Assembly (NCBI GenBank): GCA_963780935.1
Contig: CAWAEM010000004.1
Span: 816,402-880,401, forward strand
Source of the DNA: an uncultured Acidobacteriota bacterium
Lineage (GTDB): Bacteria > Acidobacteriota > Terriglobia > Acidiferrales > UBA7541
Direction of reading: 5' to 3'
Length of the DNA: 64,000 bases
Position 1 is the first letter of the stretch, and each line of letters opens with the position of its first letter. The position numbers were made by a program, and so were the translations under genes. This document shows positions 5,865-40,637 of the stretch, piece by piece. The notes below the pieces were generated by a model, which made no database searches, had not been told where the DNA came from, and saw nothing but the letters and a program-made list of their open reading frames with translations.

Positions 5865-7115
5865 CTAAGAACGCAGTCTGACGAACCGTGCTTCCGCGGC
5901 GGCCAGGGTCGATTCCTTTTTGCAGAAGGTGAAGCGCACCTGGGAGGCGCCGTCCTGCGCATGGTTGTAGAAACTGGAGCCAGGGACACACGCGACGCCG
6001 ATTTCCTGCACGAGATATTTGGCGAAAGCCACGTCGCGCGAGGGCGCGACAAAGCGCGGATCTTCTTTCGGAAAAGCGAAGCGCGAAATATCGGTCATGA
6101 TGTAGTAGGCGCCACGCGGTTTGTAGACCGTGAAATGCGCGGCCGTCAGAATTTCCAACAGCCGCTCACGTTTCACGGTGTAGGTTTCCGCCAGTCTGTC
6201 GTAATAGGTTTGCGGAAATTTTAGCGCCGCGGCTCCGGCCTGCTGCAACGGCGCGGCTGCTCCCACCGTCAGAAAGTCGTGCACCTTGCGAATGGATTGC
6301 GTTGCTTCGGGAGGCGCAATGGCCCAACCGACACGCCAGCCCGTCACGCTGTAAGTTTTCGACAGCCCGTTAATAACGATGGTGCGCTCGCGCATGCCAT
6401 CGATCTGCGCCATGGAAATGTGCTGCCTTCCATCGTACAAAATGTGTTCGTAAATCTCATCGGTGATGCAGAAAGTATTGTGACGAATGCAGAGGTCGCG
6501 AATGAATTCGAGCTCCGCGCGACTGAAGACCTTCCCCGTGGGATTGTTGGGGGTATTAAGAATGATCGCCTTGGTGTGCTGGTTGAATGCTGCGGCCAAT
6601 TCATCCTGGTCGTAAGTCCATTCCGAGTTCGCATCTTTAGGAGGGTTCATCCGCACGAAGCGCGGAGTCGCTCCGCTCAGAATGGCGTCCGGCCCGTAAT
6701 TTTCATAAAACGGTTCAAAGACCACAACTTCGTCGCCGGGATTAATGATGGCCATCATTGCGGACATCATGGCTTCGGTCGAGCCGCAACAGATCGTAAT
6801 TTCACGCTCGGGATCAACGCGAACATTTTGCGTTCGCGCAAATTTCTCGACAATTGCGTCCCGCAGCGGCTTGGCGCCCCAGGTGATGGCGTACTGGTTG
6901 ATGTCATCGGCAATCGCTTGGCGGGCGGCTTCCTTAATCTCTTCAGGCGCCGCAAAGTCCGGAAAACCCTGCGAAAGATTTACCGCGTTGTGTTTTTGCG
7001 CCAGCCGGGTCATTTCGCGGATCACCGACTCGGTAAATTGCTCGGCTTTGGCGGAGAGCATGCGCGTCTGGGCGTGCCGCGCGCTTTGCCCGATGGAAAC
7101 GTTCGTAAGAGGCAT
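5865..7115 (-). CDS. PLP-dependent aminotransferase, class I/II
   Basis: NLSQGFPDF, NTPNNPTGKV, TDEIYEH, LSKTYSVTGWRVGW (PLP lysine); start uncertain (ATG 7115, ATG 7061 or TTG 7130). Confidence 0.9.
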   Translation of the reverse strand: MPLTNVSIGQSARHAQTRMLSAKAEQFTESVIREMTRLAQKHNAVNLSQGFPDFAAPEEIKEAARQAIADDINQYAITWGAKPLRDAIVEKFARTQNVRVDPEREITICCGSTEAMMSAMMAIINPGDEVVVFEPFYENYGPDAILSGATPRFVRMNPPKDANSEWTYDQDELAAAFNQHTKAIILNTPNNPTGKVFSRAELEFIRDLCIRHNTFCITDEIYEHILYDGRQHISMAQIDGMRERTIVINGLSKTYSVTGWRVGWAIAPPEATQSIRKVHDFLTVGAAAPLQQAGAAALKFPQTYYDRLAETYTVKRERLLEILTAAHFTVYKPRGAYYIMTDISRFAFPKEDPRFVAPSRDVAFAKYLVQEIGVACVPGSSFYNHAQDGASQVRFTFCKKESTLAAAEARFVRLRS

Positions 7116-7260
7116 GCTGGTATTCTGCAATAACGGCGAAGAGTTTTCAGAATAAAGTTATGCGCGGAAGTGACCGAAAAAACTCGCAGGCGAAAGATCG
7201 CTCGCGGAGGTACAATTGTTTCCCCGGACTCCCCTGCGATATTCCATCAGGAGAACTGTC

Positions 7261-7752
7261 ATGCCCCTCAACGAGTTGTTGCTCCGCGAGTTTGACGTGG
7301 AAATGCCGAACACGCGCAAAACCCTGGAACGCGTACCTGCCGACAAGTGGGACTGGAGACCGCACGAGAAATCCGGAACTCTAGGCTGGCTCGCCGGCCA
7401 CGTGGCGACGCTGCCCGGCTTCACCATTGCGGTGGTGCAGACTCCGGAAATGGAAATCGCCGGAGCCGTGTTTCCAAAAGTCGCGAAACATGCCGAACTA
7501 CTCGACACTTTTACCAACGTGAGCAAAGAAGCGCGCACCGCGGTTGCCGGACTGAACGACGCGCAACTGGCCGAAACCTGGACGCTCAAATGGAGCGGCA
7601 AAGTGTTGTTTTCTCTGCCTCGCTATGACGTCCTGCGCGTGCACTGCTTCAATCATCTGATTCATCATCGCGCGCAATTAACGGGTTATTTCCGCACGCT
7701 GAACGTGCCGTTGCCGGCGCTCTATGGCCCGAGCGCGGATGAACAGTTCTAG
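7261..7752 (+). CDS. DinB/YfiT-family protein (paralog 1)
   Basis: WRPHEKSGTLGWLAGH...NHLIHHRAQL...LYGPSADE; His triad pattern; AGGAG RBS before ATG 7261. Confidence 0.85.
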   Translation: MPLNELLLREFDVEMPNTRKTLERVPADKWDWRPHEKSGTLGWLAGHVATLPGFTIAVVQTPEMEIAGAVFPKVAKHAELLDTFTNVSKEARTAVAGLNDAQLAETWTLKWSGKVLFSLPRYDVLRVHCFNHLIHHRAQLTGYFRTLNVPLPALYGPSADEQF

Positions 7753-7903
7753 ATGCTTCGAGAAGGACTAGCTGACGCGAATTGCCGGGGACTCCCGTTG
7801 GCAGGCACTCGCGTGTAATTTTCACCCGGTCATTTCCGCCTAAGTGGCATTGCAACGCCTGGGCGTTCTCGTCATCAAATGCTAGTAGCTGCTGGAGGCC
7901 ATC

Positions 7904-9088
7904 GTGGAAGTTCCAGTGATTCTCAGCGCAGTGCGCACACCCGTCGGCAGGTTTCAGGGCGGTCTGGCGGGATTTTCGGCCACCGAACTAGGCGCCAAAG
8001 TTGTCGCCGAGGCGACACGGCGCGCGGGTCTCGACGGCAAGCACATCGATGAAGCCATCCTGGGCAACGTCGTGCAAGCCGGCCTTGGCCAGAATCCCGC
8101 GCGCCAAGCGGCCCTCAAGGGCGGCTGCGCTCCACGCGTCGCGGCGCTCACGATTAACAAAGTGTGCGGTTCGGGATTAAAGGCCGTTGCCCTCGCGGCG
8201 CAAGCCGTCCAACTCGGCGAATCCGAAGTCGTCGTGGCGGGAGGCATGGAGTCCATGTCCAACTGTCCGTACTTGCTGCCACAAGCGCGCACCGGTTACC
8301 GCATCGGCGACGGCAAGCTGGTCGATTCCATGATTCACGACGGCTTGTGGGACGCATACGAAGATTTTCATATGGGAATGACCGGCGAACTGGTCGCCGA
8401 GAAGTATGGCATTACGCGCGAAGAGCAAGACCGCTTCGCCTTCGAAAGCCATCAAAAAGCGGTTCGCGCCCGCAAGTCGTGCTTTTTCGAGGCGCAAATT
8501 TTGCCAATCGAAGTTCCGCAAAAAAAGGGCGAGCCGCTGGTGATTCGTTACGATGAATCGCCTCGCGAAGATACCTCCGTCGAGGCCCTTGCCAAACTGA
8601 AACCCGCGTTCAAGAAAGACGGCACGGTAACTGCGGGCAACGCCCCCGGCACCAATGACGGGGCGGCTGCGCTAATCGTCACGAGCGAACGGCAGGCAGA
8701 GGTGCTCGGCAAGAAACCGATGGCACGCATCGTTGCGCAGGCCACCAGCGGCGTCGAGCCCAAGTGGGTGATGATGGCTCCCGTCGAGGCCGTCGAGAAG
8801 CTCCTTGCGAAAACCGGCTGGGACCGCGACAAAGATGTGGACTTGATTGAGTTAAACGAAGCCTTCGCAGTGGCAGCGATCGCGGTGACCCGTCAGCTAA
8901 AATTAAATCCAGAGAAGGTGAACGTGAACGGTGGCGCGGTTGCCATCGGCCATCCCATCGGCGCGTCCGGCGCGCGCATCCTGGTAACGCTGCTCTACGA
9001 ACTCGAGCGCCGCAACCTCCGGCGTGGTATCGCGGCGCTGTGCCTCGGCGGCGGCAACGCCGTCGCGCTCGCCGTCGAGCGGTACTGA
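7904..9088 (+). CDS. Acetyl-CoA C-acetyltransferase (thiolase)
   Basis: [11 protein letters not shown] (catalytic Cys), [21 protein letters not shown]. Confidence 0.95.
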
Positions 9089-27545: not shown

Positions 27546-30413
27546 CTATATGTTTCCTGCGGTACTGGCGCTTGCGGCCGCGATTTGGCCTTCAATCTCA
27601 TTCAGCGCTTCGGTACACCGCTCGCACACCGTCATGTAGCGCGCATTTTCCCCAACGTGCGTCGAATAATTCCAGCAACGCTCGCACTTCGCGCCGTCCG
27701 CCTTTTGAACCGTAATTTCCAGCGACGGCACAACCTCTGATCGATAGTTCCCCGCCTCGGCATTCAAAAAATCCACCTGCGACACGATGAACAAGCCCGG
27801 CAGCGCCGCCAGATAATGCTTCAGCTTCGTCTTCAGCTGCAGCTCCGCATGCAGGAGCACCTTCGCTTCGAGCCCGGAGTTGATCACCTTCTCGTTCCGC
27901 GCAATCTCCAGCGCCTTCAAGACTTCTCCGCGAACCTTCGCCAGCATTTCCCAGTTCGCAATTTTTTCCGCGGCCAGCCCCGTGCGCATCTCCGTTTCGT
28001 CCGGGAACAGCGCCATGTGCACGCTTTCCGCGTCCCCGCCGCTCTTCGGCAGATATTTCCAGATCTCTTCTGCCGTAAACGTCAACACCGGCGCGGCAAT
28101 CCGTACCAGCGCGCTGGTAATTTCTAGTGCCGCCGTCTGCGCCGACCTCCGCGATTTATTTTTCGCCGCCTTCGTGTACAAGCGGTCCTTCAGCATGTCG
28201 TAATAAAACGAACTCAGCTCTACCACGCAGTAATCGTGAATCGCGTGGTACACCCGGTGAAACTCATAACCCGCGTACCACTCGCGGCACTTCTTCACCA
28301 GGTCCGCCGTCCGTTCCACCATCCACCGGTCGATCTCTTCCATCTCCGCGTGCGGCACGAGGTCCGTAGCCGGATCGAACGACGACAGATTCCCGAGCGC
28401 GAATCGAAACGTATTGCGAATCTTCCGGTACGCTTCGCTGAGCTGCGTCATCACCCGCTCGCTCATCTTCACGTCCGCCTGATATTCCTGCGACGCCACC
28501 CACAACCGCAGCAAATCCGCTCCCCACTTCTCGCAAATCTCTGAGGGCAGCACCACGTTCCCCAGCGACTTAGACATCGGCCGCCCCTGCTCATCGAGCG
28601 TCCACCCGTGCGTCACCACGCCCCTGAACGGCGCGTGCCCCCGCACTCCGGTCGCCACGAGCAGCGAACTCTGAAACCATCCGCGATACTGATCCGGCCC
28701 TTCCAAATAAACATCCGCCGGCCATTCCGCGCCTTTCAACACCGCCAAATTGGACGATCCCGAATCAAACCACACATCCAGAATGTCGTTTTCCTTGCGC
28801 CATTTCCGCGCGCCGCACGTGCACTTCGTCTGCGCCGGCAGCAACTCTTCCGCCGTATGCTGATACCACGCATCCGCGCCTTCCTTCAGAAACCACTGCA
28901 AAACATTCTTCAGCGCCGCAAAATCCTCCAGCCGCGTCCCGCAAGCATCGCAATAAAAAACAATAATCGGCACGCCCCAGAATCTCTGCCGCGAGACGCA
29001 CCAGTCCGGCCGCCCTTCCACCATTTCGTAAATCCGCTCTTCGCCCCACCCCGGAATCCACTTCACGCCGTGCACTTCATCCATCGCCGACTGCCGTAAA
29101 CTTTTCGTCGCCCCATGCGCGGCGCGATCCAAATCGATGAACCACTGCTCCGTGGCGCGAAAAATCACCGGATTGTGGCAGCGCCAGCAATGCGGATAGG
29201 TGTGGCGATAGTCGTGAAGCCCCAGCAGCGCTCCATGCGCCGCCAGCAATTTCACGATGATCGGATTCGCCGTAAAAACATCTTTCCCCAAATACTCCGG
29301 CAATCCCTCGGTATAGACTCCGCGATCGTCAATCGGCGCCGCGATCTCCAGTCCATACTTCACGCCCGTACGGTAATCGTCCGCGCCATGCCCCGGCGCG
29401 GTGTGCACGATCCCGCTGCCTTGGTCGAGCGTCACGTAATCCGCGAGCACTCCTGGTACCTGCATCGGCAAGAAAGGATGTTGAAATTTCACACCCTCAA
29501 ATTCGCGCCCCTTAAACGTTCCCACCACGCGCGCTTCCGTGCTCCCCGTCTCCGCCTGCAGCGCCGCCACGCGCTCCGCCGCCAGCAGCAATCTTCCCTT
29601 CTCCGTCTCCACCACCGCATATTCAAAATCCGGATGAAACGCCAGCGCCCGATTACTCGGCAGCGTCCACGGCGTAGTCGTCCAGATCACCGCGCGCGTC
29701 CCCGCGCCCAATTTTCCCTGTGCCGCGTCGTTCTCCGCCAGCGCAAAGGTCACCCATACCGACGGACTTACGTGGTCCTCATACTCCACTTCCGCTTCCG
29801 CCAGCGCCGTGCTGTCGAACAAGCACCAATAAACCGGCTTCCTCCCGCGATACACGTAGCCTTTCTCCATAAAATCAAGAAACGCTCCCGCAATGGTCGC
29901 CTCGTACTCAAAATTCATCGTCAAATACGGCTCGTTCCACCTCCCAAAAACCCCTAGCCTCTTAAAATCCCTGCGGTGCTGATCCACATACCTCGTCGCA
30001 AACTCCCGGCACAATTTCCGAAACTCCGCTGGGGCAACTTTCCCTTTCCCTCCCAGCTCTTTCTCCACCTGCGTCTCAATCGGTAGTCCGTGGCAATCCC
30101 ACCCCGGCACGTACGGCGCGTAATGCCCCGCCATGCTCTTTGACTTCACCACTAAATCCTTCAAGATTTTATTCAGTCCCGTCCCGAGGTGAATCGTCCC
30201 TGTCGGATACGGCGGCCCGTCGTGCAGCACAAATAGGGGCTTCCCCTCGCGCACGGCCAGAATGCGCTCGTACAGTTTCGCCTCGTCCCACGCCGCCAAT
30301 TGCTTGGGCTCGTTCTGCGGCAACCCCGCCTTCATCGGGAAATCCGTCTTCGGCAGATTCAGCGTCTTTTTCAGTTCTAAAGGTTCAAGCATAAGTTGAG
30401 CGTTTTCAAACAT
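27546..30413 (-). CDS. ileS: Isoleucyl-tRNA ligase (type 1)
   Basis: HDGPPY...HLGT (HIGH), GWDCHGLPIE, GSGIVHTAPGHG, DWCVSRQR, PMSKSLGN (KMSKS), C-terminal KCERCW...CERC; alternative start 30392. Confidence 0.98.
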   Translation of the reverse strand: MFENAQLMLEPLELKKTLNLPKTDFPMKAGLPQNEPKQLAAWDEAKLYERILAVREGKPLFVLHDGPPYPTGTIHLGTGLNKILKDLVVKSKSMAGHYAPYVPGWDCHGLPIETQVEKELGGKGKVAPAEFRKLCREFATRYVDQHRRDFKRLGVFGRWNEPYLTMNFEYEATIAGAFLDFMEKGYVYRGRKPVYWCLFDSTALAEAEVEYEDHVSPSVWVTFALAENDAAQGKLGAGTRAVIWTTTPWTLPSNRALAFHPDFEYAVVETEKGRLLLAAERVAALQAETGSTEARVVGTFKGREFEGVKFQHPFLPMQVPGVLADYVTLDQGSGIVHTAPGHGADDYRTGVKYGLEIAAPIDDRGVYTEGLPEYLGKDVFTANPIIVKLLAAHGALLGLHDYRHTYPHCWRCHNPVIFRATEQWFIDLDRAAHGATKSLRQSAMDEVHGVKWIPGWGEERIYEMVEGRPDWCVSRQRFWGVPIIVFYCDACGTRLEDFAALKNVLQWFLKEGADAWYQHTAEELLPAQTKCTCGARKWRKENDILDVWFDSGSSNLAVLKGAEWPADVYLEGPDQYRGWFQSSLLVATGVRGHAPFRGVVTHGWTLDEQGRPMSKSLGNVVLPSEICEKWGADLLRLWVASQEYQADVKMSERVMTQLSEAYRKIRNTFRFALGNLSSFDPATDLVPHAEMEEIDRWMVERTADLVKKCREWYAGYEFHRVYHAIHDYCVVELSSFYYDMLKDRLYTKAAKNKSRRSAQTAALEITSALVRIAAPVLTFTAEEIWKYLPKSGGDAESVHMALFPDETEMRTGLAAEKIANWEMLAKVRGEVLKALEIARNEKVINSGLEAKVLLHAELQLKTKLKHYLAALPGLFIVSQVDFLNAEAGNYRSEVVPSLEITVQKADGAKCERCWNYSTHVGENARYMTVCERCTEALNEIEGQIAAASASTAGNI

Positions 30414-30613
30414 CTCCTCATTGGCTGGTACGTACCGCCCTGTTGTTCAGGTATCCGGCGGGAAACATCGGAAAGCGGTTGAATTCCGTATGTTACAATG
30501 AATGCAGCTTGGTGTCAGCCGCACGCCCGCGCAACCATTCTCGGGCTAGGCGAATCCTACCCAGCTTGGGACACCGAATGCAGGGTAGCTGCGTCTAAAT
30601 TCGAGGGGATACA

Positions 30614-31840
30614 GTGCCGGGTCCAATCACAACTCTTTTGCCGCCTGAATTCAACAGACCTGCCGGGTCCGCGCCCGCCGTACCCGTGCCTTCCACACTC
30701 GTCCCGAGATTTGCCGCCCCCAAACACGTCGTCTCGGACGGATTTTTCTCCAACCTCAAACAATTTCTCGTCGAGCGCCCGGTAAAACTTAACGGCGCGG
30801 TCAATTCTCCGCTCATGCCTTCGACGTACGGCGGCGGCTTCTCGGAAAATCTCAGAGAGTTCTTCAGTTCACGCCCCGTTCCAAAAGGCCCGGTTAACAG
30901 CCGTCTGGCGGTCTCCTGGGGCACCAGTTTCGGCGGCTTCGGTTACCGCATCAAAGAATTTTTCTCACCGACGAAGATGGCGCCGCTGCAAGTCACCAGC
31001 AAGCCCATCAAAGTGAAAGATATTTGGTCCAAGGACGAAAATTTTGGCTGGACGCAGATCCTCTCCGTCGGCCTCCACGTCGCCATCATGGCGTTGATCA
31101 TCGCGCCTTTCATCATGAAGCTCTCGCCCACCACGCAGGCGAAGAACCCCGTCGACGTCACTCCCATCGATATTTCCGATTACATGAGCAAGCTTCCTGC
31201 GGGCGCCGATAAAGCTGGTGGCGGGGGTGGCGGTGGTGATCGTTCGATCCTGCCTCCCACCAAGGGCAAGCCGCCTAAGTTTAAGTGGACTCAGCTCACG
31301 CCTCCCGAGGCCACTCTTAAGAATCCGGCGCCCAAGCTGCCGGTCGATCCGTCCCTACTCGGGCCTCCCGATCTCAAAGTGCAAAGCCCTAACCTGAACA
31401 ACATGGGCGATCCTATGGCCGCTTCCGTCAACTTCTCCGGCGGTTCCGGCGGTGGTGGCGGCATCGGTACGGGCGGCGATGGCGGCATTGGTAGCGGAAG
31501 CGGTGGCGGTCTTGGCCCCGGCAGCGGTGGCGGCACTGGTGGCAGCGTGTTTCGCGCTGGCACGAACGGCATCGGCCAGCCCGTTTGCATCTATTGCCCG
31601 CCTCCGGAATTTTCCGACGAGGCCCGCAAAGCCAAGTACATGGGCTCCGTCCTTCTCGACGTCACCGTCACTCCCGATGGTCGCGTCATCGATCCCGTCG
31701 TCATTACAGGTCCCGGCATGGGTCTAGACGAAAAAGCCATAGAACGTGTAAAGACCTGGAAGATGAGAGCGGCATTGGGTCCAGGTGGTAAGCCCACGAC
31801 TTGCCGCGTAACGATCGACGTTCACTTCACGCTCTTGTAA
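30614..31840 (+). CDS. Energy transducer TonB-family protein
   Basis: One TM helix, Pro- and Gly-rich linker, C-terminal PEFSDEARKAKYMGSVLLDVTVTPDG...LDEKAIERVKTWK...IDVHFTL. Confidence 0.88.
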   Translation: MPGPITTLLPPEFNRPAGSAPAVPVPSTLVPRFAAPKHVVSDGFFSNLKQFLVERPVKLNGAVNSPLMPSTYGGGFSENLREFFSSRPVPKGPVNSRLAVSWGTSFGGFGYRIKEFFSPTKMAPLQVTSKPIKVKDIWSKDENFGWTQILSVGLHVAIMALIIAPFIMKLSPTTQAKNPVDVTPIDISDYMSKLPAGADKAGGGGGGGDRSILPPTKGKPPKFKWTQLTPPEATLKNPAPKLPVDPSLLGPPDLKVQSPNLNNMGDPMAASVNFSGGSGGGGGIGTGGDGGIGSGSGGGLGPGSGGGTGGSVFRAGTNGIGQPVCIYCPPPEFSDEARKAKYMGSVLLDVTVTPDGRVIDPVVITGPGMGLDEKAIERVKTWKMRAALGPGGKPTTCRVTIDVHFTLL

Positions 31841-31951
31841 GCACGCGTGGCGCAAGCGGAAGTCCGCGCTACGTCAGTGCTCCTTCGCAGTTCACGCAAC
31901 AACTCAAAATGCCCTGCTTCTGCGCCCGGTACAATCTGCTACGATTCCCGC

Positions 31952-32815
31952 ATGCGAAAAATCACTGTCCCTTTCGTGCTGGCTCTGCTGTGCTCGTTGT
32001 CGTTTTCCTTCTCCTCCATCGCTCGCGCGCAATCGGACAAAGGCGCCATCGAACTCAACGCTCGCATCACCCCCACTGCCGCGCGCCCCGAGCCCGTTCG
32101 CCAGTTCACCTTTTATCTGCTCACCCGCAGCTACGAGGAAGTCGTCCGCGATATCGGCGCACAAAACGTTTTGCCGCCGCGCAGCGAATTTATTGACACG
32201 CTGAAAATTTCCGATCCGCTCAAAGCCTGGCTCAAGGCCCACGACATTCTCGACCTCACCATGCCCGGTCTCGATAAAGCCGTCACCGCCGACGACATCA
32301 TCAACGTCCCTGAGTTTCTCCTCGCCTACCAGCATTCCAACAGCGGCGGCGTTACCAACGGCATTCCGAAACCTAAATACAAAGACGCTGACAAGATCGA
32401 TCACCCGGACCGCTACAAAAAGGATTACCAAGACTACATAAACGCGCTGAAGCATTTCATTCAAGCCCACCCTGAAACCGTCAGCGGCATGGAGCTCGAA
32501 CTCACCGCCATCAATCCGCAAACCAAATGGGCCAGAATCGAAAGCGATAAGCGCAATGCCATCCAGCGCAAGGCCCCCGACGTCGCACAAACCAAATATC
32601 TCGTCGCCAAAGTGGACACCGATCTGGAAGGTCACGCCGCGCTCGCCGGTTTGCCTCCCGGCAATTTCTGGATCAGCACTCTTAATCTCGATGCCGATGC
32701 CGGAGACGCTCGTCTGCGCTGGGACGTTCCTGTTACCATCGAACCCGGCCACACCACTCGCGTCGACCTTACCAATCTAAACGCCATCGACGCCCACGTC
32801 GTTTCAACTCCTTAG
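31952..32815 (+). CDS. Exported hypothetical protein
   Basis: Signal peptide (MRKITVPFVLALLCSLSFSFSSIARA); C-terminal beta-rich segment (LPPGNFWIS...WDVPVTIEPG); codon pattern matches neighbours. Confidence 0.75.
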   Translation: MRKITVPFVLALLCSLSFSFSSIARAQSDKGAIELNARITPTAARPEPVRQFTFYLLTRSYEEVVRDIGAQNVLPPRSEFIDTLKISDPLKAWLKAHDILDLTMPGLDKAVTADDIINVPEFLLAYQHSNSGGVTNGIPKPKYKDADKIDHPDRYKKDYQDYINALKHFIQAHPETVSGMELELTAINPQTKWARIESDKRNAIQRKAPDVAQTKYLVAKVDTDLEGHAALAGLPPGNFWISTLNLDADAGDARLRWDVPVTIEPGHTTRVDLTNLNAIDAHVVSTP

Positions 32816-32833
32816 AATTAACCTTACTTCGCT

Positions 32834-33748
32834 ATGGGCACGCCGTTCCGCTGGGTCGCCTTCAATCTCTTTATCCTTCTTGCCGTTTGCGCGGACCTGC
32901 GTTTCATCCACCATAAGCCGCACAAAAGCTCGGTTCGCGAAGCTGCCCTCTGGAGTCTCGCGTGGATCGCCGTCTCCATCCTCTTCGGCATCGGCGTCCA
33001 CTTTTACTTTGGCGCCCCCGCCTCCCTCGAATATTTCACCGGATATCTGATCGAAAAGGCTCTTAGCGTCGACAATCTCTTTTTGTTTCTCGTAATCTTT
33101 CGCGCTTTCGCCGTCGACCCTCGCCTGCAGCAGCGCCTGTTGCAGTGGGGAGTCTTCGGCGCTCTGCTCATGCGCGGCCTCATGATTCTCGCCGGGGCCG
33201 CTCTCATCCAGCGTTTCTCCTGGATTCTCTATCTGCTCGGCGCCTTCCTCGTCTTCGTCGGCATACGCATGCTCTTCGCCAAAAAAGAAAAGATTCATCC
33301 CGAACAAAACGCCATCTTCCGCTTCGCCAACCAACACCTTCGCGTCACCCGCGACTACCAAGGCGAACACTATTTCGTCCGGCGCGCCGGTCAACTCTTC
33401 GCCACCCCACTCTTCGTCGTCCTGCTGGTCATCGAAATCACCGACATCACCCTCGCCGTAGATTCCATTCCCGCCGTCTTCGGAATCACCCGCGACCCGT
33501 TCATCGTCTACACCTCCAACGTGTTCGCTATTCTCGGTCTCCGCGCTCTCTACTTCCTCCTCGCGGGCGTCCTCGGCCGCATGCGCTATCTCACCGTAGG
33601 CCTATCCTTCGTTCTGGTTTTCATCGGCGCAAAAATCGCAGCCGAGCCGTGGCTGCACATCCCGGTGCAAATCTCCCTCGGCGCGGTTGCCGGCATATTG
33701 GCCCTCGCCATACTTGCGTCCGTCGCGGCCCAATCGGATTCCGCATAG
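32834..33748 (+). CDS. TerC/Alx-family metal-homeostasis membrane protein
   Basis: IEKALSVDNLF, DITLAVDSIPAVF, FIVYTSNVFAILGLRALYF. Confidence 0.92.
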   Translation: MGTPFRWVAFNLFILLAVCADLRFIHHKPHKSSVREAALWSLAWIAVSILFGIGVHFYFGAPASLEYFTGYLIEKALSVDNLFLFLVIFRAFAVDPRLQQRLLQWGVFGALLMRGLMILAGAALIQRFSWILYLLGAFLVFVGIRMLFAKKEKIHPEQNAIFRFANQHLRVTRDYQGEHYFVRRAGQLFATPLFVVLLVIEITDITLAVDSIPAVFGITRDPFIVYTSNVFAILGLRALYFLLAGVLGRMRYLTVGLSFVLVFIGAKIAAEPWLHIPVQISLGAVAGILALAILASVAAQSDSA

Positions 33749-33800
33749 CTTTCACTCCGGTGCTTTTCCCGCCACTTGTCGCCCCTTTCTTCCATCCAAA

Positions 33801-34001
33801 CAGCCCACTACCGTCAGCCGACCTAACTTGTCAGCTGCGTTCGTTCGGTTAGCGTGGGTGGTTCACAAGAGTGCCCAAATCTTCGGCACCAGCTCATTGC
33901 GAAATCCCCTAAACCTGCACAATCTAACCGACGCGAACCGGCGTAAAGGCTCGCGCGACAGCAAGACGTCGTTTCGGTTCACGAGGTGGGATGAAGGGCT
34001 G
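33801..34001. ncRNA. Candidate structured RNA or long irregular hairpin
   Basis: Nested complementary blocks: CAGCCC/GGGCTG, GTTCG/CGAAC, TCGGTTAG/CTAACCGA, GGTT/AACC, GTGCC/GGCAC, in a 330-bp gap between convergent genes. Confidence 0.3.
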
Positions 34002-34075
34002 GAAGAATTCCGTGCAAAAATCAGCAGTTACCGCAAATCAGCGGATGGAAATGGCTCAAACAAACGCGACTGTCC

Positions 34076-34336
34076 TCATTCCTTAACCATTTCGTCCACG
34101 TAACACCACTCCCAGCTTTCCCCCGGCTCGATCGAACGGATCACCGGATGCTTCGTGGCATGGTAGTGCTTCGTCGCATGCTTGTTCTTTGAATCGTCGC
34201 AACACCCCACATGCCCGCACGTCAGGCACAGCCGCAGGTGCACCCAGTCGTCGCCCATCTTCAGGCACTCTTCGCACCCGTCCGTATTCGGCTTCACGTT
34301 ATGCGCTTTTTTTAAATGCACACAAAGGTCGGACAT
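34076..34336 (-). CDS. UBP-type zinc finger protein (86 aa)
   Basis: CVHL...GCEECLKMGDDWVHLRLCLTCGHVGCCDDSKNKHATKH...WEWCYVDE; GAGGAG RBS before ATG 34336. Confidence 0.88.
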   Translation of the reverse strand: MSDLCVHLKKAHNVKPNTDGCEECLKMGDDWVHLRLCLTCGHVGCCDDSKNKHATKHYHATKHPVIRSIEPGESWEWCYVDEMVKE

Positions 34337-34352
34337 CGTTTCTCCTCGCGAA

Positions 34353-35792
34353 TCACAACGCGCCTTGAATCGGAATGCGCACCTGAAATCGCGTATCGCC
34401 CGGCACGGACTTGACGTTGATCTGCCCATGCATTTTTCTCACGATACGGTGTACCACATCGAGGCCCAGCCCCGTGCCCTCGCCAACGCCCTTCGTCGTG
34501 AAAAACGGCTCGAAGATCCGCGATTGCACTTCCGGCGGAATGCCCGGCCCGCTATCCCCGATCTCCACCACCACATACTCGTTTTCCCGTTTCGCGCTCA
34601 CCCGCAATTTTCCTTTGCCCTGCATTGCATCCGCGGCATTGTCGATCAGGTTGGTCCACACCTGATTCAGTTCGCTGCCATAGGCCATGATCTTCGGCAA
34701 GTCCTCGGAATACTCCCGCGTCACGGTAATGCCATGCTTCAGCTTGTGATTCATGATCGTCAGCGTGGTTTCCAGGCTGCTCTTCAAATTCACTTCCTGC
34801 GATGGTGCCTGGTCCATGTACGAATATTCCTTGATCGCTTTGATCAGCTCAGAAATGCGCGCCGTGCTGTGGTCGAGTTCAACTGCAATGCGATCCATCT
34901 CCAGCAGCGTTCCGAACCGCATCAATTCCGCGCCCACGGACGGTCCGCAGATCTTCGCAAAGCTATCGAGATGCTCGTTCGTCAAATTCCCTTCCGCCAG
35001 CATGGGGGCAAGTTTCCACGGCTCCGGCACATGATGTGCTTCCAGCCAGCTCTGAATGGCCTCTTCGCGTTCCACGCGCGTGAATTCATCCTGCTGCTCC
35101 GGCGGTCGCAGCTGCTTGCGAATCTCTTCTTCGTGCTGCGCTAGCAGATTGCAAGCTTCGGAAGTCAAATTTGACTCATGCGTCGCGGTGCGCAGCCGCT
35201 GCAAGCAATCTTTTAGTGCGCCTGCCGATCGCCGCGCCGCCGCGGAAGGGTTGTTCAATTCGTGTGCCAGGCCCGCTGACAATTTTCCGAGTGCCGCCAG
35301 TTTTTCGTTCTGCTGCTCGATGCGCGTAAAATCACGCACCCTGTCCGTCAACACGCCGATTAGTTTCTGCGCCAAGTGCGGCAACCGCTGAATCAATTCC
35401 GCGAAATTGCCGGTACGAAACGCCAGTCCGTGCAGCGCCGTTACGGCGCGCCCGGTCACCGTATAAATCTTCATGCGCGAGAACGGCAGAATACCCGTGA
35501 TGTCCCCGGAATGCGCCGTAAACACCGTGCTATCCGGCCCGCTGGCTTCGCGTCGCGCGCGCATTTCGCCTTGCAGCAGCACCAGCATGCGGTCCGCGGG
35601 TTCGCCTTCGCGCACCACGATTTCACCGGGCGCCAGGCGTATTTCTTCCGCCTTGGAGATAAACCATTCGAGTTCTTCCGTCGTTAAAATGGCAAACGCC
35701 GGCACCAGGCGCAATTGCTCGACCAGGGACAGACTGCCGGATGATTCGAGACTTTCGTTTTTCGGAGTATCGCTACCCAGACGGCCCTCCAC
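34353..35792 (-). CDS. Cytoplasmic sensor histidine kinase with N-terminal cyclic-nucleotide-binding domain
   Basis: cNMP-like VREGEPADRMLVLLQGE...GDITG; H-box LAHELNNP; N-box NLIDNA; DSGPGI; FEPFFTTK; GTGLGL; no TM helix. Confidence 0.9.
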   Translation of the reverse strand: MEGRLGSDTPKNESLESSGSLSLVEQLRLVPAFAILTTEELEWFISKAEEIRLAPGEIVVREGEPADRMLVLLQGEMRARREASGPDSTVFTAHSGDITGILPFSRMKIYTVTGRAVTALHGLAFRTGNFAELIQRLPHLAQKLIGVLTDRVRDFTRIEQQNEKLAALGKLSAGLAHELNNPSAAARRSAGALKDCLQRLRTATHESNLTSEACNLLAQHEEEIRKQLRPPEQQDEFTRVEREEAIQSWLEAHHVPEPWKLAPMLAEGNLTNEHLDSFAKICGPSVGAELMRFGTLLEMDRIAVELDHSTARISELIKAIKEYSYMDQAPSQEVNLKSSLETTLTIMNHKLKHGITVTREYSEDLPKIMAYGSELNQVWTNLIDNAADAMQGKGKLRVSAKRENEYVVVEIGDSGPGIPPEVQSRIFEPFFTTKGVGEGTGLGLDVVHRIVRKMHGQINVKSVPGDTRFQVRIPIQGAL

Positions 35793-35814
35793 GGTTTTCT
35801 GCTCGAAGCTGACT

Positions 35815-37485
35815 CTAAACTTTGGCCAAATATTGATGAATGAATTGCACGACCACCGCGCCTTCTCCCACGCCGGAAGCCACGCGCTTCACCGATCCGT
35901 GACGCACGTCGCCCACGACAAAAATGCCGGGAACGCTCGTTTCCAGAAGCCCCGGATCGCGCTCCTGCGTCCAGGTTTTTGGCGGTTTCCCGTCGACGAT
36001 CAAGTCCGGTCCGGAAAGCACAAAACCCAGATTGTCCCGCATCACCACGCCGTCCAGCCACTGCGTGCGCGGCTGCGCCCCGATAAAAATAAACAGGCTG
36101 GACGCCGGCGCTTGCTCCGTGGTTTTGCTGTCCGAATATTCAATCGAAATACATTCCAGCCGCTTCTCGCCATAAACGCCGGTCACGCTCGCGAATTTAC
36201 GCACTTCGATATTCGGGGTCTTTTCAATTTGCTCGATCAAATAGAAAGACATTGTGCTCGCCAAAGTCGCGCCGCGAATCAGCATCACCACTTTGGCCGC
36301 GAACTTCGAAAAATGCATCGCCGCTTGTCCGGCGGAGTTCGCGCCGCCTACGATATACACCGTCTCGCCCTTGCAAGACAACGCTTCCGAGCTGCCGCCT
36401 CCGTAATACACGCCGGCGCCTTGCAAACGGTCCATTCCCGGTACATCCAACGACCGCCATTGCACGCCCATTGCCAGCAACAGCGCATTGCAGGAAATCT
36501 CCGTGCCGTCCACCAGTTTTATATAGCGGTATGGTCCTTCGACGCGCACCCCAATCACTTCTTGCGGCGAAAGAATTTCCACGCCGAAGCGCTCCGCCTG
36601 CTGCACTGCGCGGCGTGCCAGATCGCTTCCGGAAAGGCCCACGGGAAATCCCAGGTAATTCTCAATTCGCGAACTCAAGCCCGCTTGGCCGCCCGGAGCT
36701 TCGCGCTCAATCATCACCGTACGCAACCCTTCGCTCGCGCCGTAAACTCCCGCAGCCAAACCAGCCGGCCCGCCGCCCACAATCGCGAGATCGTAAAAAT
36801 TCGCCTGCGCGTGCGTTTTCAATCCAATTTTGTCGGCAACCGCCGGTAGCGCCGGCTCGGCGAGCCGCACTCCATCCGGGAAAAGCATCACCGGTAATTG
36901 ATGCGTTTCCGGTCCCAGCGACTCCACCAGGCCTTTCACCTCCGGATCGGTTTGCGCGAGCTCGATATCGATCCATTGGTAAGGCACTTGATTGCGCGCC
37001 AGAAAATTTCGCAGCTCGTAAGAGCGGTTTGAATAGCGCGTGCCCAGCACGCGAATGCCTTCGTAGGGAGGCCGGAACGTGGAAGTCCAATCGTTCAGCA
37101 AATCGTCAAGCGCGGGGAAAAGTTTTTCCTCGGGAGGATCCCAAGGTTTCATCAGGTAATAATGAACGCGAGCTTCGTTGATCGCTTCAATCGCCGCGCT
37201 GGTATCCGCGTAGGCCGTCAGCAGCGCTCGCTTGGCCTGCGGATAAATTACCATCGCCTCAGCAAGCAAACCGACGCCATCCATCAGTGGCATGCGCTGA
37301 TCCACCAGGAGCAGCGCCACCGGGTTATTTCGTGCCTTGAGTTCGCGCAACGTATCCAGCGCCGCGCCTGGCGAATTTGCGCGCATCACGCGGTAATGCT
37401 CCGAATAGTGGCTGCGCAAATCACGCTCAATCGCACGCAACACTTCGGGATCGTCATCCACCGTCAACAAGACTGGCTTCGGCAT
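35815..37485 (-). CDS. Response-regulator receiver fused to a thioredoxin-reductase-like FAD oxidoreductase
   Basis: Receiver (TVDDDPE, LLVDQRMP, LTAY, MKPW); GGGPAGLAA FAD motif; ENYLGFP; VGGANSAG NAD(P)H motif; SVKRVASGVGEG. Confidence 0.9.
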   Translation of the reverse strand: MPKPVLLTVDDDPEVLRAIERDLRSHYSEHYRVMRANSPGAALDTLRELKARNNPVALLLVDQRMPLMDGVGLLAEAMVIYPQAKRALLTAYADTSAAIEAINEARVHYYLMKPWDPPEEKLFPALDDLLNDWTSTFRPPYEGIRVLGTRYSNRSYELRNFLARNQVPYQWIDIELAQTDPEVKGLVESLGPETHQLPVMLFPDGVRLAEPALPAVADKIGLKTHAQANFYDLAIVGGGPAGLAAGVYGASEGLRTVMIEREAPGGQAGLSSRIENYLGFPVGLSGSDLARRAVQQAERFGVEILSPQEVIGVRVEGPYRYIKLVDGTEISCNALLLAMGVQWRSLDVPGMDRLQGAGVYYGGGSSEALSCKGETVYIVGGANSAGQAAMHFSKFAAKVVMLIRGATLASTMSFYLIEQIEKTPNIEVRKFASVTGVYGEKRLECISIEYSDSKTTEQAPASSLFIFIGAQPRTQWLDGVVMRDNLGFVLSGPDLIVDGKPPKTWTQERDPGLLETSVPGIFVVGDVRHGSVKRVASGVGEGAVVVQFIHQYLAKV

Positions 37486-37632
37486 GTTCCTCAGATGCTC
37501 TGAACGTTGCTGGAGTTACTTAAGTTACTTGACTTTCGCGGCTCGCAAAACTCCCGCAACGCGCGGAATTCACGATGCAGGCTGCCACGCTCTTCTCGCG
37601 GCTAATTCGCTGCGCTACAATTCAGCCCCATC

Positions 37633-38232
37633 ATGCCTGCAATGGACCCTGATTGGCTCGAGGAACTTTGTTCCGACGGCGAACTGGAGCGCAGCATCGC
37701 CGCCGGAGAAATTCACCGTTGCGGGCGTACCCCGGCGCTGCTCGTCGTGCATTCCTGGCGAAAACAGCCGGACCTGGAAAGTCTTTTGCCGGATCCGGAC
37801 ATGAACGTCACCGTCGGCGTAGCCGTGCGGCCGGACACCTTCAAAGCGATTCGCGCCGCCGCCGGCATGCCGGAACTTGCTGATGTTCCTCCTGACCAGG
37901 ACGCCATCGAGTTTGAAATGAATTTCGCTAGCGGTGCCATGTTGGATATTTTAACAACGAAAGATCCATCCGGAACTGGCGCGATCGCGCGCTATCTGCA
38001 TAAATTTGGCGAAGGCGTCCAGCAAGTGGAGTTTCTTTGTACCGATGTTGACCGGGCGACAGCCGCCCTCAAGGCTCATTTCGCGCTATCGCCGGTGTAC
38101 CCCGAAACTCGTGCTGGAGCGAACGGCACGCGCATCAATTTCTTTCTTGTCGGCGTCGATGGAGAAAGCGGTCGTGAAAAACTCTTGATCGAACTCTACG
38201 AGAAACCAGAAAAGGGATCCGCAGTCCACTAA
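37633..38232 (+). CDS. VOC/glyoxalase-superfamily protein (methylmalonyl-CoA-epimerase-like C-terminal half)
   Basis: AIARYLHKFGEGVQQVEFLCTDVD...RINFF...LLIELYE; N-terminal half not recognised. Confidence 0.55.
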   Translation: MPAMDPDWLEELCSDGELERSIAAGEIHRCGRTPALLVVHSWRKQPDLESLLPDPDMNVTVGVAVRPDTFKAIRAAAGMPELADVPPDQDAIEFEMNFASGAMLDILTTKDPSGTGAIARYLHKFGEGVQQVEFLCTDVDRATAALKAHFALSPVYPETRAGANGTRINFFLVGVDGESGREKLLIELYEKPEKGSAVH

Positions 38233-40637
38233 TTGCGCAGCGGCTTGCCGGTTTTCAGCGTATAGGCGATGCGTTCTTGTGTTTTCTTCTCGCCGAGCAG
38301 CGAAACAAACGCCTCGCGCTCCAAATCGAGGACGTATTGTTCGCTCACCATTTGCGGCGCGCTCAACGCTCCGCCCGCTAAAATATTCGCCAGCTTGCGG
38401 CCGACATGCGCGTCGTAATCGGACGCATATCCGCCTCGCTGCAACATGTGAATCGCCAGTTTACCCGCAGCCAGAAATGATTCGCCGAGCACTTTGATTT
38501 GCGTGGTCTGCGCGCCTTCCTGCCAGCTCGCGGCCAGCGGTTTCCACCCGCCACGCACCAGGCTCAGCGCGGCCTGTTTCGCATCTCCCACGAGCCGCAT
38601 GCCGTTCATGGAGACGCCATCTTCGCGCCGCAAAAATCCCAGGTCGCGATTTTCTTCGGCGCTGGTCCCGACTTTCGCCATGGCAATCGATTCAAAAACG
38701 GGTCTCAAAGCGTGAAACAAGTCCAGTTCTTCACCACCAGCGGCATGCTCGTTCGCGCGAATCATCATCTCTTTCGTTCCGCCGCCGCCAGGAATGAGCC
38801 CCACACCGGCTTCTACAAGACCCATGTACGATTCCGCTGCCGCTTGAATGCGTGCTCCGTGCAAACTCACTTCGCACCCGCCGCCTAGCGCCATTCCCTG
38901 GGGGGCGACTACCACCGGTTTTCGCGCGTACTTGATCGCCAGATTCACGTTCTGAAATTGCTTCACCGCCATGTGCAGCTCGTCCCACTCCTGCTCTTGC
39001 GCGCCGACCAGCACCAGCATCAAGTTGGCGCCCACGGAAAAGTTCACAGCCTGGTTGGCGATCACCATCGCTGCAAAATCCGTTTCGAGCCGCTTCAATC
39101 CTTTGTGAATCATGCTGATCAAATCCGCACCGATGGCGTTCATCTTGGCGTGAAATTCGCAGCACACTACGCCATCGCCCAAATCGATCAAGCTCGCGCC
39201 CGAGTTGCGTTCCACCTCACGGCCGGCTTCTTTCAGCGATTTCAAAATAATTACGCCGCCCGGTTCCTGCAAGGTTCGCGGCCCTACAATGTCAAAAACA
39301 GTGGTAACTCCCTTTTCACTCTCGTAAAATCCCTTTCGCCCGCTCGCCAGCACCCGCTCGATCAACAACGGCAAAGGACGTTTCTCTTTTTCGACCTGCG
39401 CGGCAAATTCTTTCACGCCAATGGCGTCCATCATTTCAAAAGGACCAAGCTCCCAGCCAAATCCCCAGCGCATCGCGCGATCCACTTCCGCGACGTTGTC
39501 GGCGATTTCCGGAATGCGGCGCGCGGCATACAGGCAGGTCTCCGAGAGCGCCTGCCACAGAAATTGCTGCGCCTTGTCGCCCTTTTGCCCCTGCAAAATA
39601 GGGCCGACCAGAAAACGCAACCGCTCTTTCGTGTCTTCGATTCCCTTGCCAGCTTCGAGCGACGCGAATTTGGCTTTTTGCTTGGGCCGATACTCCATGG
39701 TTTTGACGTCCAGCGTCAAAATCTCGCGGGGACCTTCTTTGGTTTTCTTGTAAAATCCCTGGCCGGTTTTATCGCCCAGCCATCCGCGCTTAGCCATCTC
39801 TTCAAGAAGTGGCGGAACCTTGTAGCGCTCGCGCAATTCGTCATGGGGAGCAGTTTCGTAGATGTTTTTAACCACGTGCGTCAGCACGTCGAGGCCCACC
39901 AAATCCGCGGTGCGAAAGGTCGCCGACTTCGGCCAGCCAACCGCCGGACCGGTGCACGCGTCGATTTCTTCGACCGTCATGTCCAGCGCGTCCATCAACC
40001 GCAAAGCGTTGAGCATGGAAAATGTTCCGATGCGATTGGCGATGAAATTCGGCGTGTCTTTCGCCTCCACGACGCCCTTGCCGAGGCGGCGATCACAAAA
40101 TTCGCGCAGCGTTTCCAGCACGTCGCTGGAGGTCTTTGGACCGGGAATAATCTCCACCAGTTTCAAGTAGCGCGGCGGATTGAAAAAGTGCGTTCCGCAC
40201 CAGTGCTCTTGAAATTCATCGCTCATGCCTTCGGCGATTAAACGCACCGGCAGCCCGGAGGTGTTGGTGGTGACGATCGCGCCAGGTTTGCGAAATTGCG
40301 CGACGCGCTCAAGCAGCTGGCGCTTGATTTCCAGATTTTCCGCGACGACTTCGATGATCCAATCGGCCTCAGCCACGCGCGCCAAGTCGTCTTCGAAATT
40401 CCCGATGGCCACTTTTTCCGCGAGAGCGGCATTAAAAAATGCCGCCGGTTTCGATTTTTTAGCGGCCTCGAGGCCCGCACGCACGATTTTGTTGCGGTCC
40501 GGCGATCCTGGCGCGGCGCCTGCAGGAGCAACATCCAGCAAAACGCACGGCAAACCGGCGTTCGCAAAGTGTGCCGCGATGCGCGCGCCCATGGTTCCAG
40601 CCCCCAACACCACCGCTTTTTCAATGCGACGTTTCAT
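38229..40637 (-). CDS. 3-hydroxyacyl-CoA dehydrogenase / enoyl-CoA hydratase family protein (FadN-like)
   Basis: GAGTMG, IEVVAE, TTNTSG, GTHFFNPPRY, NFIANRIG; C-terminal crotonase fold (NFSVGANL, LGGGCE, GLVEAGVGLIPGGGG); start at ATG 40637. Confidence 0.92.
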   Translation of the reverse strand: MKRRIEKAVVLGAGTMGARIAAHFANAGLPCVLLDVAPAGAAPGSPDRNKIVRAGLEAAKKSKPAAFFNAALAEKVAIGNFEDDLARVAEADWIIEVVAENLEIKRQLLERVAQFRKPGAIVTTNTSGLPVRLIAEGMSDEFQEHWCGTHFFNPPRYLKLVEIIPGPKTSSDVLETLREFCDRRLGKGVVEAKDTPNFIANRIGTFSMLNALRLMDALDMTVEEIDACTGPAVGWPKSATFRTADLVGLDVLTHVVKNIYETAPHDELRERYKVPPLLEEMAKRGWLGDKTGQGFYKKTKEGPREILTLDVKTMEYRPKQKAKFASLEAGKGIEDTKERLRFLVGPILQGQKGDKAQQFLWQALSETCLYAARRIPEIADNVAEVDRAMRWGFGWELGPFEMMDAIGVKEFAAQVEKEKRPLPLLIERVLASGRKGFYESEKGVTTVFDIVGPRTLQEPGGVIILKSLKEAGREVERNSGASLIDLGDGVVCCEFHAKMNAIGADLISMIHKGLKRLETDFAAMVIANQAVNFSVGANLMLVLVGAQEQEWDELHMAVKQFQNVNLAIKYARKPVVVAPQGMALGGGCEVSLHGARIQAAAESYMGLVEAGVGLIPGGGGTKEMMIRANEHAAGGEELDLFHALRPVFESIAMAKVGTSAEENRDLGFLRREDGVSMNGMRLVGDAKQAALSLVRGGWKPLAASWQEGAQTTQIKVLGESFLAAGKLAIHMLQRGGYASDYDAHVGRKLANILAGGALSAPQMVSEQYVLDLEREAFVSLLGEKKTQERIAYTLKTGKPLRN

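Follow-up and report, generated by a model that had tools for sequence, protein, structure and literature searches.

Censuses of bacterial response regulators distinguish a 'TrxB' output class, in which S. coelicolor SCO7298, with its kinase SCO7297, is listed unnamed and unstudied, and another response regulator of this class has been recorded in one thermophilic cyanobacterium. Such 'TrxB-type' regulators combine a receiver domain (REC) with a Pyr_redox_2 module and have an adjacent classic kinase, an organization shared by the locus described here, but they stand as catalogue lines without function, and SCO7298 is compared with our locus by its description only. The corresponding NCBI family name is 'fused response regulator/thioredoxin-disulfide reductase'. 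The locus lies at positions 34076 to 37485, on the minus strand, of a 64,000-nucleotide window of contig CAWAEM010000004.1 (assembly GCA_963780935.1), belonging to the 4.95-Mb genome of a soil acidobacterium, and encodes a REC-flavoprotein fusion, a soluble histidine kinase and a small zf-UBP zinc finger protein (ZnF). It is real, well conserved, and a member of this catalogued but experimentally untouched class. What the present analysis adds for the family, as far as can be read from sequences, is the absence of the CxxC motif, the presence of a dead glutaredoxin (Grx)-like domain and the link to the zf-UBP module. The reading that we favour, with middling confidence, is that of a cytoplasmic two-component system whose output would be an NAD(P)H flavoenzyme that is free of thiols, is gated by a signal and has the ZnF metalloprotein as its partner or substrate.

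The flavoprotein gene (35815..37485, minus strand) encodes 556 residues in which Pfam recognizes Response_reg (7-118) and Pyr_redox_2 (231-542), and its AlphaFold2 (AF2) model has a mean confidence score (pLDDT) of 87.7. Residues 229-556 (35818..36801, minus strand) form a thioredoxin reductase (TrxR)-fold domain for flavin adenine dinucleotide (FAD) and NAD(P)H, as assigned from PDB TrxR matches, Foldseek and sequence motifs. Solved TrxRs match these C-terminal ~330 residues with values up to 4e-40 in the PDB search, and Foldseek superimposed the model on L. lactis TrxR in its flavin-reducing (FR) conformation (5mh4) with a TMt of 0.93. Of the cofactor motifs that characterize TrxB, GxGxxG for FAD (here GGGPAGLAAGVYGASEG) and GxGxxA for NAD(P)H (here GGANSAGQAA) are both conserved, as are the GGQ and GDVR...VGEG motifs among flavoprotein homologues; since both cofactor motifs are invariant, a cofactor-binding flavoprotein is to be expected. 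Hence, the protein shares with the low-Mr TrxB its two-Rossmann fold and its cofactor motifs, but lacks its CxxC. At the site equivalent to the TrxB CATC, which here reads YYGGGSSEALSC (residues 359-371; 36373..36411, minus strand), the alignments place GGGSS opposite the CAIC of 4zn0 and the CATC of the genome's own TrxB (contig C2). Both cysteine positions are occupied by other residues, no cysteine is invariant among 29 members of the family, and the family consensus at the site is YYGAAxxEA. The cysteine that follows it, C371, is T, Y or F in the copies of loci L086, L095, L099 and L100, and the whole 556-residue protein contains three cysteines. In agreement with this, the NCBIfam model TRX_reduct (TIGR01292) gives 188.7 bits against a cut-off of 343.45, and the AhpF model 142.5 against 502.9.

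Between the receiver and the reductase module, residues 143-222 (36820..37059, minus strand) are modelled by AF2 as beta-alpha-beta-alpha-beta-beta-alpha, that is, with a thioredoxin/glutaredoxin fold. The best PDB match of this domain is the mycobacterial glutaredoxin Rv3198.1 (2lqo), which aligns weakly (E = 0.044) and places its CGYC opposite S152-N-R-S155 (37021-37032, minus strand). The isolated linker retrieved no Pfam match even at E = 10, while that of a paralogue discussed below matches Pfam Glutaredoxin at 3e-4. The assignment as a Grx-like (glutaredoxin/mycoredoxin-like) domain is therefore based on the AF2 model together with the weak PDB match. Altogether, the alignments demonstrate the loss of all four catalytic or redox cysteines of a Grx-TrxR relay. 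Because CxxC is absent from every member, the protein is, on the evidence of its sequence, not a thioredoxin reductase; a genuine TrxR is ruled out by the missing motif, and the name 'TrxR' used in the preliminary description cannot be maintained, the more so as the preceding domain has SxxS.

The order of the domains recalls AhpF, in which a thioredoxin-fold domain likewise precedes the TrxR module; however, the AhpF domain bears its own CxxC, where here the fold is present and the motif is SxxS, so that the flavoprotein lacks both redox cysteine pairs. TrxR-type ferredoxin-NADP+ reductases (FNRs) and the bacillithiol-disulfide reductase YpdA/Bdr are also TrxR folds devoid of an active-site disulfide; the former are distinguished by a C-terminal extension with an aromatic residue that stacks on the flavin, and have ferredoxin or flavodoxin as their partner. 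Nonetheless, sequence matches to FNRs and to the YpdA model are weak and far below those to true TrxRs, those to ferredoxin-NADP+ reductases being 1e-9 to 1e-11 and covering part of the domain. Unlike them, the family has a signature of its own, consisting of YYGA..EA, MSxYL and a 20-residue insertion W..R.P.LLET (residues ~490-515), and is fused to a REC or a cyclic nucleotide monophosphate (cNMP) sensor and to the Grx-like domain. The flavoprotein family as a whole is very large: for the REC type every one of the 8000 candidates that were scored proved a significant match (at least 8000 members), and the cNMP-type flavoprotein is found in 8-9% of sampled Proteobacteria. The same genome contains one of the latter (G000:C5:628888-630594), a paralogue 40% identical in which a cNMP-binding domain with a near-canonical cassette, GD..RRS, replaces the receiver, followed by the same Grx-like linker and a CxxC-less reductase (YYGATFIEAQLC); no ZnF gene stands beside it.

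The receiver occupies residues 4-120 (37126..37476, minus strand), its closest relatives being of the RpfG/HupR type with a KPW motif. As the preliminary description had indicated for the phospho-acceptor Asp, the Thr and the Lys, the functional residues are retained: the acidic pair D10/D11, D62 (37300-37302, minus strand), T90 and K113 are all present, each with a conservation of 90% or more among 29 homologues. A receiver that gates a fused enzyme, as proposed here, is already known from CheB, PleD/WspR and RpfG, with the difference that their outputs are a methylesterase or cyclic-di-GMP enzymes and that of the flavoprotein would be a flavin oxidoreductase.

The kinase gene (34353..35792, minus strand) encodes 479 residues, with Pfam cNMP_binding at 51-136 and HATPase_c at 374-475, and was modelled with a pLDDT of 84.3. 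In the AF2 model a CAP-type barrel comes first, then two long helices separated by a three-helix insertion, the first of them bearing H177, and last the ATPase. H177 (35262-35264, minus strand), in the motif HELNNP, is invariant in 23 kinase homologues, and so are N381/N385, D413-G415-G417, F427/F430 and G437-G443; the H-box histidine and the N, G1, F and G2 boxes of a histidine kinase are thus all in place, as had been anticipated. The dimerization and histidine phosphotransfer (DHp) helices span residues 138-328 (34809..35381, minus strand), as helix 138-205, helices 211-267 and helix 272-328, and found no match in Pfam HisKA. They contain the three-helix insertion (residues 206-271; 34980-35177, minus strand), ~65 residues between two helices with a conserved SDREE..WLE motif. 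The catalytic ATP-binding domain (residues 330-476; 34365..34805, minus strand) matches HATPase_c at 6.8e-26. The highest 19-residue hydropathy is 1.18, which leaves no membrane segment; the solubility claimed earlier is thereby corroborated, and a membrane sensor kinase is ruled out for lack of any hydrophobic stretch.

The N-terminal CAP-fold sensor domain (residues 30-136; 35385..35705, minus strand) was assigned from Pfam cNMP_binding and the AF2 model, with 41.8 bits for PF00027 against a cut-off of 27.5 and a barrel modelled at residues 48-126. In CAP and PKA the cyclic phosphate is held by a canonical cassette, Gly-Glu ... Arg-(Ser/Thr)-Ala. The equivalent cassette of the kinase, GDITGILPFSRMKIYTVTGRA (35445-35507, minus strand), is non-canonical: the Glu is replaced by Ile and R(S/T)A is absent. 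Closer kinase homologues conserve TG(I/M)LP(F/Y)SRM at this position, while GE is kept in some distant ones and GE...RR(S/A) in most of the one-protein cNMP-flavoprotein fusions. Because the cassette Glu and Arg are replaced, we designate this domain a CAP-fold sensor rather than a cAMP/cGMP sensor, as the 'cNMP-domain' of the preliminary description would have implied; judging from these replacements, its ligand is probably neither cAMP nor cGMP.

To evaluate gene linkage, an evenly drawn sample of 151 acidobacterial genomes was used, 18 of which, counted at species level, contain a full-length REC-flavoprotein fusion. A kinase homologue lies directly beside the fusion in 17 of these 18, in either gene order. 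The sole exception, G040/L100 (5056-6681), has no adjacent kinase, and its receiver is devoid of the DD pocket and of the phospho-Asp; this flavoprotein copy resembles a pseudo-receiver version of the family. Gene content in this way demonstrates the linkage of kinase and receiver, and this adjacency, together with the loss of receiver residues in the kinase-less copy, supports a cognate pair that would gate the flavoprotein, in line with what had been suggested. The two-gene kinase/regulator pair is, on this comparative evidence, the conserved core of the system; a third conserved gene next to the pair was looked for, and none was found. In one genome (G120, L102 4881-7956) the pair is broken into several frames, through decay of this copy or through a fault in the assembly, and a ZnF gene lies 10 kb from it.

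The third gene (34076..34336, minus strand) encodes a stand-alone zf-UBP protein of 86 residues. The ZnF-UBP pattern noticed earlier is substantiated by the match to PF02148 (1.1e-13; 51.6 bits against a cut-off of 22.7) and to PDB 2IDA (3.8e-35), an NMR structure deposited as 'hypothetical protein', which we take to be from Rhodopseudomonas palustris. Thirteen Cys/His positions are invariant among 81 ZnF sequences: C5, H7, C21, C24, H33, C37, C40, C45, C46, H53, H57, H63 and C78. The family is sizeable, with 2978 clusters at 50% identity (E <= 1e-3). To our knowledge, bacteria lack ubiquitin. In human ZnF-UBPs, binding of the ubiquitin tail is set by a key Arg, Arg84 in USP16, together with aromatic residues (2026 study, PMC13493902). 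The bacterial ZnF shares with the ZnF-UBP/BUZ domains of USP5, USP16 and HDAC6 the Pfam family and the Cys/His ligand pattern, but differs from the eukaryotic ones in an Asp in place of the key Arg and in an extra invariant Cys ahead of it, both within the invariant CCDD motif (34193-34204, minus strand), whose D47 falls on USP16 Arg84 in the alignment. Since the key Arg is replaced by an invariant Asp, the canonical ubiquitin-tail pocket is, as judged from this alignment, not conserved; the same change rules out a reader of ubiquitin or of a ubiquitin-like protein (Ubl), and the ubiquitin-tail binding that the preliminary description had brought in from eukaryotes does not carry over.

The three genes are separated by 22 nt (flavoprotein/kinase) and 16 nt (kinase/ZnF), an arrangement on the minus strand that the open reading frames (ORFs) and Pfam domains reproduce as first described. 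Judged by its recurrence, it is far from chance, because the identical trio, in the same order, was found in 31 of the 80 loci that hold the closest ZnF relatives and that made up our ZnF neighbourhood scan. In a Truepera genome (Deinococcota, L117) the order is ZnF, regulator, kinase. The trio was also met, at 84-87% identity, in a small number of loci with the labels Betaproteobacteria, Cybelea or Udaeobacter; as these contigs are probably acidobacterial and misbinned, they were left out of the counts for other phyla. The earlier statement that the trio recurs thus stands for the closest ZnF relatives, but not for the system at large, whose core is the pair: ZnF is adjacent to the REC-flavoprotein in 3 of the 18 acidobacterial species, and present somewhere in the genome in 14 of them.

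The association of ZnF with the flavoprotein extends to loci having no kinase. In seven loci of the ZnF scan, labelled Bryobacterales, Chthonomonadaceae, Usitatibacter, Gamma- and Betaproteobacteria, Nitrospirales and Myxococcales, ZnF is directly beside a kinase-less cNMP-flavoprotein fusion, and an eighth pair of this kind is acidobacterial (G038/L101). In a sample of 150 Pseudomonadota genomes the fusion is present in 12, ZnF in 6 and both in 4, and in all four of the latter ZnF is the next gene downstream. The co-occurrence profiling that had been proposed confirms that ZnF and the flavoprotein family are found together: in Acidobacteriota both occur in 18 genomes, the flavoprotein only in 8, ZnF only in 9 and neither in 116 (Fisher p = 5e-11, uncorrected for phylogeny), and in Pseudomonadota the figures are 4, 8, 2 and 136 (p = 3e-4, likewise uncorrected). 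Furthermore, 17 of 20 additional genomes, picked for having ZnF in other contexts, encode the flavoprotein family. These distributions demonstrate, at the level of gene content, a linkage between ZnF and flavoprotein that is independent of the kinase; given the pairs with kinase-less fusions and the genome-wide co-occurrence, ZnF is tied to the flavoprotein whatever its sensor domain, and not to the kinase. As to the two roles considered for ZnF at the outset, that of a partner of the flavoenzyme is accordingly favoured by the kinase-less pairings, and that of a modulator of the kinase is disfavoured.

Beyond these operons, zf-UBP is found C-terminally on CPA2-type (Kef-like) K+/H+ antiporters with TrkA_N/RCK (L008 5327-7252, L065 5219-7246, L111 6079-8484), and nine of ten long ZnF representatives (P0148, P0248, P0263 and others) consist of Na_H_Exchanger and/or TrkA_N, with or without TrkA_C, followed by a C-terminal zf-UBP. 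It is also C-terminal on an MFS transporter (P0244) and on LtrA (L110 4685-6112). N-terminally, it is fused to a DAC domain, that is, a diadenylate (c-di-AMP) cyclase (L009 1348-2343, L017 2222-3226); in these fusions the RHR motif reads RHL, which makes their cyclase activity uncertain. Considering both the antiporter and the DAC fusions, ZnF is linked twice, as far as domain architecture tells, to potassium/c-di-AMP biology. Free ZnF genes are followed by DUF5996 in 10 of 49 non-trio loci and stand beside a methylpurine glycosylase gene in six, a block of methylpurine-DNA glycosylase, zf-UBP and DUF5996 recurring in L042, L053, L067 and L080 (~6200-8300 each); MsrA and Dps are further neighbours. 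In terms of its gene and domain contexts ZnF is a mobile module; they suggest involvement in stress, redox and ion homeostasis, as well as a regulatory or relay role. The same genome has a second, divergent zf-UBP gene (L002, G000:C5:147198-147404) that lacks the C5, H7 and C78 ligands. Its immediate upstream neighbour is an MDR-type zinc-dehydrogenase/quinone-oxidoreductase-like gene, with which it constitutes another pair of NAD(P)H oxidoreductase and ZnF, and a VOC/glyoxalase gene is near.

In the mechanism that we favour, the output of the locus would be an enzyme and not a transcription factor. The soluble kinase would sense its ligand through the CAP-fold domain and phosphorylate D62 of the cognate receiver, itself fused to the redox-dead SxxS Grx-like domain and to the disulfide-less flavoprotein, in which the sites for FAD and NAD(P)H are retained; phosphorylation would then act as a switch, in one sense or the other, of NAD(P)H-dependent flavin chemistry, perhaps by way of dimerization or by a shift of the NAD(P)H domain. 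The 86-residue zf-UBP protein would be a dedicated partner of the flavoprotein family, most likely acted on by the reduced flavin, either as electron acceptor or as a thiolate/metal switch being reset, and might make up in trans for the redox-active cysteines missing from the enzyme. We favour ZnF as the thing acted upon because the enzyme shed its cysteines while its companion has 13 invariant Cys/His; phosphotransfer, gating, the cofactors and the way in which ZnF and flavoprotein interact are, in all this, inferred from sequence. Given that zf-UBP modules are fused to K+/H+ antiporters and c-di-AMP cyclases in other bacteria, they might there relay redox or metal state to these effectors. 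A wider proposal, which we regard as rather doubtful, would be a phylum-spanning redox relay, in which a flavoenzyme gated by second messenger or phosphorelay sets the redox or metal state of zf-UBP and so controls CPA2-RCK-ZnF antiporters and c-di-AMP synthesis by ZnF-DAC proteins.

Several points weigh against the mechanism that we favour: (i) zinc is redox-inert, and 2IDA is presumably a zinc protein, so that an electron-carrying ZnF would need iron in vivo, or thiolate chemistry; (ii) with ZnF beside the REC-type flavoprotein in 3 of 18 species and absent from 8 of 26 family-positive genomes, it cannot be an obligatory substrate; (iii) the transporter and cyclase fusions would be no less in keeping with a regulatory or sensor domain than with a redox substrate; and (iv) the co-occurrence statistics are uncorrected for genome size as well as for phylogeny.

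In the best of the alternatives, credible if unlikely, ZnF would be a non-redox regulatory or adaptor domain. Its binding partner would be the flavoprotein itself, or else a ligand or peptide accommodated in the pocket of ZnF, and by its means targets such as K+/H+ antiporters and c-di-AMP synthesis would respond to the NAD(P)H/flavin state of the flavoprotein. The free ZnF of the operon would then be a regulatory subunit and not a substrate. The predominance of antiporter/TrkA_N proteins among the long ZnF representatives, the three more such fusions in the loci and the ZnF-DAC fusions are all consistent with it, as is the fact that genomes with an antiporter-fused ZnF (G153, G154, G077) still encode the flavoprotein family. 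Eukaryotic zf-UBPs are, moreover, binding modules, and such a coupling would have an analogue in the flavoprotein KefF, which activates KefC. Nonetheless, the Arg of the canonical peptide pocket is an invariant Asp, and an adaptor leaves unexplained why the enzyme has lost all its redox cysteines beside a Cys-rich partner. On balance, the adaptor model is nearly as good as that of a ZnF acted upon.

A second alternative, in our opinion improbable, assigns the flavoprotein to signal-gated reduction of an oxidized low-molecular-weight thiol or thione such as ergothioneine, with ZnF as an accessory. The linker does resemble a mycoredoxin-type glutaredoxin, and among Acidobacteriota EgtD (PF10017) is encoded by 24 of the 26 genomes that have the flavoprotein family, as compared with 44 of the 125 that lack it (p = 7e-8). 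Within genus g3, moreover, G111 and G135 have flavoprotein, ZnF and EgtD while G032 has none of the three, and egtB-egtD lies ~1 kb from the cNMP-flavoprotein/ZnF pair in L101. On the contrary, the association is not replicated in Pseudomonadota (EgtD in 5 of 12 against 25 of 138, p = 0.06), where EgtD is absent from all four genomes having the flavoprotein-ZnF operon, and egtBD is adjacent in 1 of the 115 loci examined. In the host genome egtBD is on another contig than the locus (G000:C2:27608-30048), an unlinked pair ~12 kb from the canonical trxB. The ergothioneine link is thus a lead, strong in Acidobacteriota, and no general rule.

That ZnF modulates the histidine kinase, as its position 16 nt after the kinase gene in the operon might suggest, we consider very improbable: ZnF pairs with kinase-less cNMP-flavoprotein fusions across many phyla, the Truepera ZnF precedes the flavoprotein gene and not the kinase gene, and none of the ten long ZnF fusion representatives is a kinase. 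Finally, hardly any credence can be given to a genuine phosphorylation-regulated thioredoxin reductase or to a Ubl reader whose ZnF would bind a C-terminal Gly-Gly, as the database names of homologues ('thioredoxin reductase (NADPH)' and the family name quoted above) and the Pfam zf-UBP match might suggest, in view of the CxxC found in no member, the TRX_reduct score far under its cut-off, the normal TrxB with CATC elsewhere in the genome and the Asp at the key Arg of ubiquitin-binding zf-UBPs.

Regarding the remaining features of the window, the listed ORF of 117 residues is an upstream extension of the 86-residue ZnF gene, for which the ATG at 34336 is, as read from the sequence, the true start, because an AGGAG ribosome-binding site (34342..34346, minus strand) lies 6 nt ahead of it, within the 16-nt gap 3' of the kinase stop, and the ATG itself is 16 nt past this stop. 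A promoter/terminator scan detected no promoter-like sites inside the three-gene block, and terminator-like sites there at a frequency not above that in shuffles. Upstream of the block, a divergent gene (37633-38232, plus strand) encodes 199 residues whose resemblance to VOC/methylmalonyl-CoA epimerase is faint (8e-5); its size and location make it candidate kin of a ~196-residue neighbour family seen in 23 loci of the ZnF scan. On the other side, a gene at 32834-33748 (plus strand) encodes a TerC/Alx-family membrane protein (TIGR03718, 'riboswitch-switched Alx'), upstream of which neither yybP-ykoY nor any other Rfam riboswitch was found at the gathering threshold; the Rfam scan of 30000-39000 retrieved no RNA families. 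Homologues at 81-89% identity are labelled Candidatus Acidiferrum/Acidoferrum.

The combination of zf-UBP, cNMP domain and redox enzyme has a reported precedent. Burroughs, Iyer and Aravind reportedly placed bacterial ZF-UBP domains, in the abstract of a Mol Biosyst article of 2011 (7:2261), in a cyclic-nucleotide-dependent redox signalling system predicted on the basis of gene context; the adjacency and co-occurrence presented here agree with such a link, by neighbourhood or by fusion, between ZF-UBP, cNMP-binding domains and a redox enzyme. In the full-text literature no functional studies of bacterial zf-UBP, 2IDA or cNMP-TrxR proteins were found, nor experimental work on any component of the three-gene system. 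The earlier qualification 'functionally uncharacterised' is thus correct as regards experiments, but the class as such had already been catalogued in the censuses and, reportedly, predicted computationally in 2011.

As it stands, the locus represents a rare case in which a two-component system, or a second messenger in the cNMP-type relatives, would directly control a redox enzyme, within a flavoprotein family that databases routinely misname thioredoxin reductase. In this family the four catalytic cysteines of an ancestral Grx-TrxR relay have been removed and the cofactor sites retained, and its constant companion is a bacterial form of the eukaryotic ubiquitin-tail reader domain, with an altered pocket, that is elsewhere fused to K+ transporters and c-di-AMP cyclases. 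The system, being compact and soluble, should be easily reconstituted. Once its substrate is identified, a new enzyme activity would be defined together with a function for the bacterial zf-UBP family (~3000 clusters at 50% identity) and, if the wider relay proved true, a domain hitherto familiar only as a reader of ubiquitin would connect cellular redox state with potassium homeostasis.

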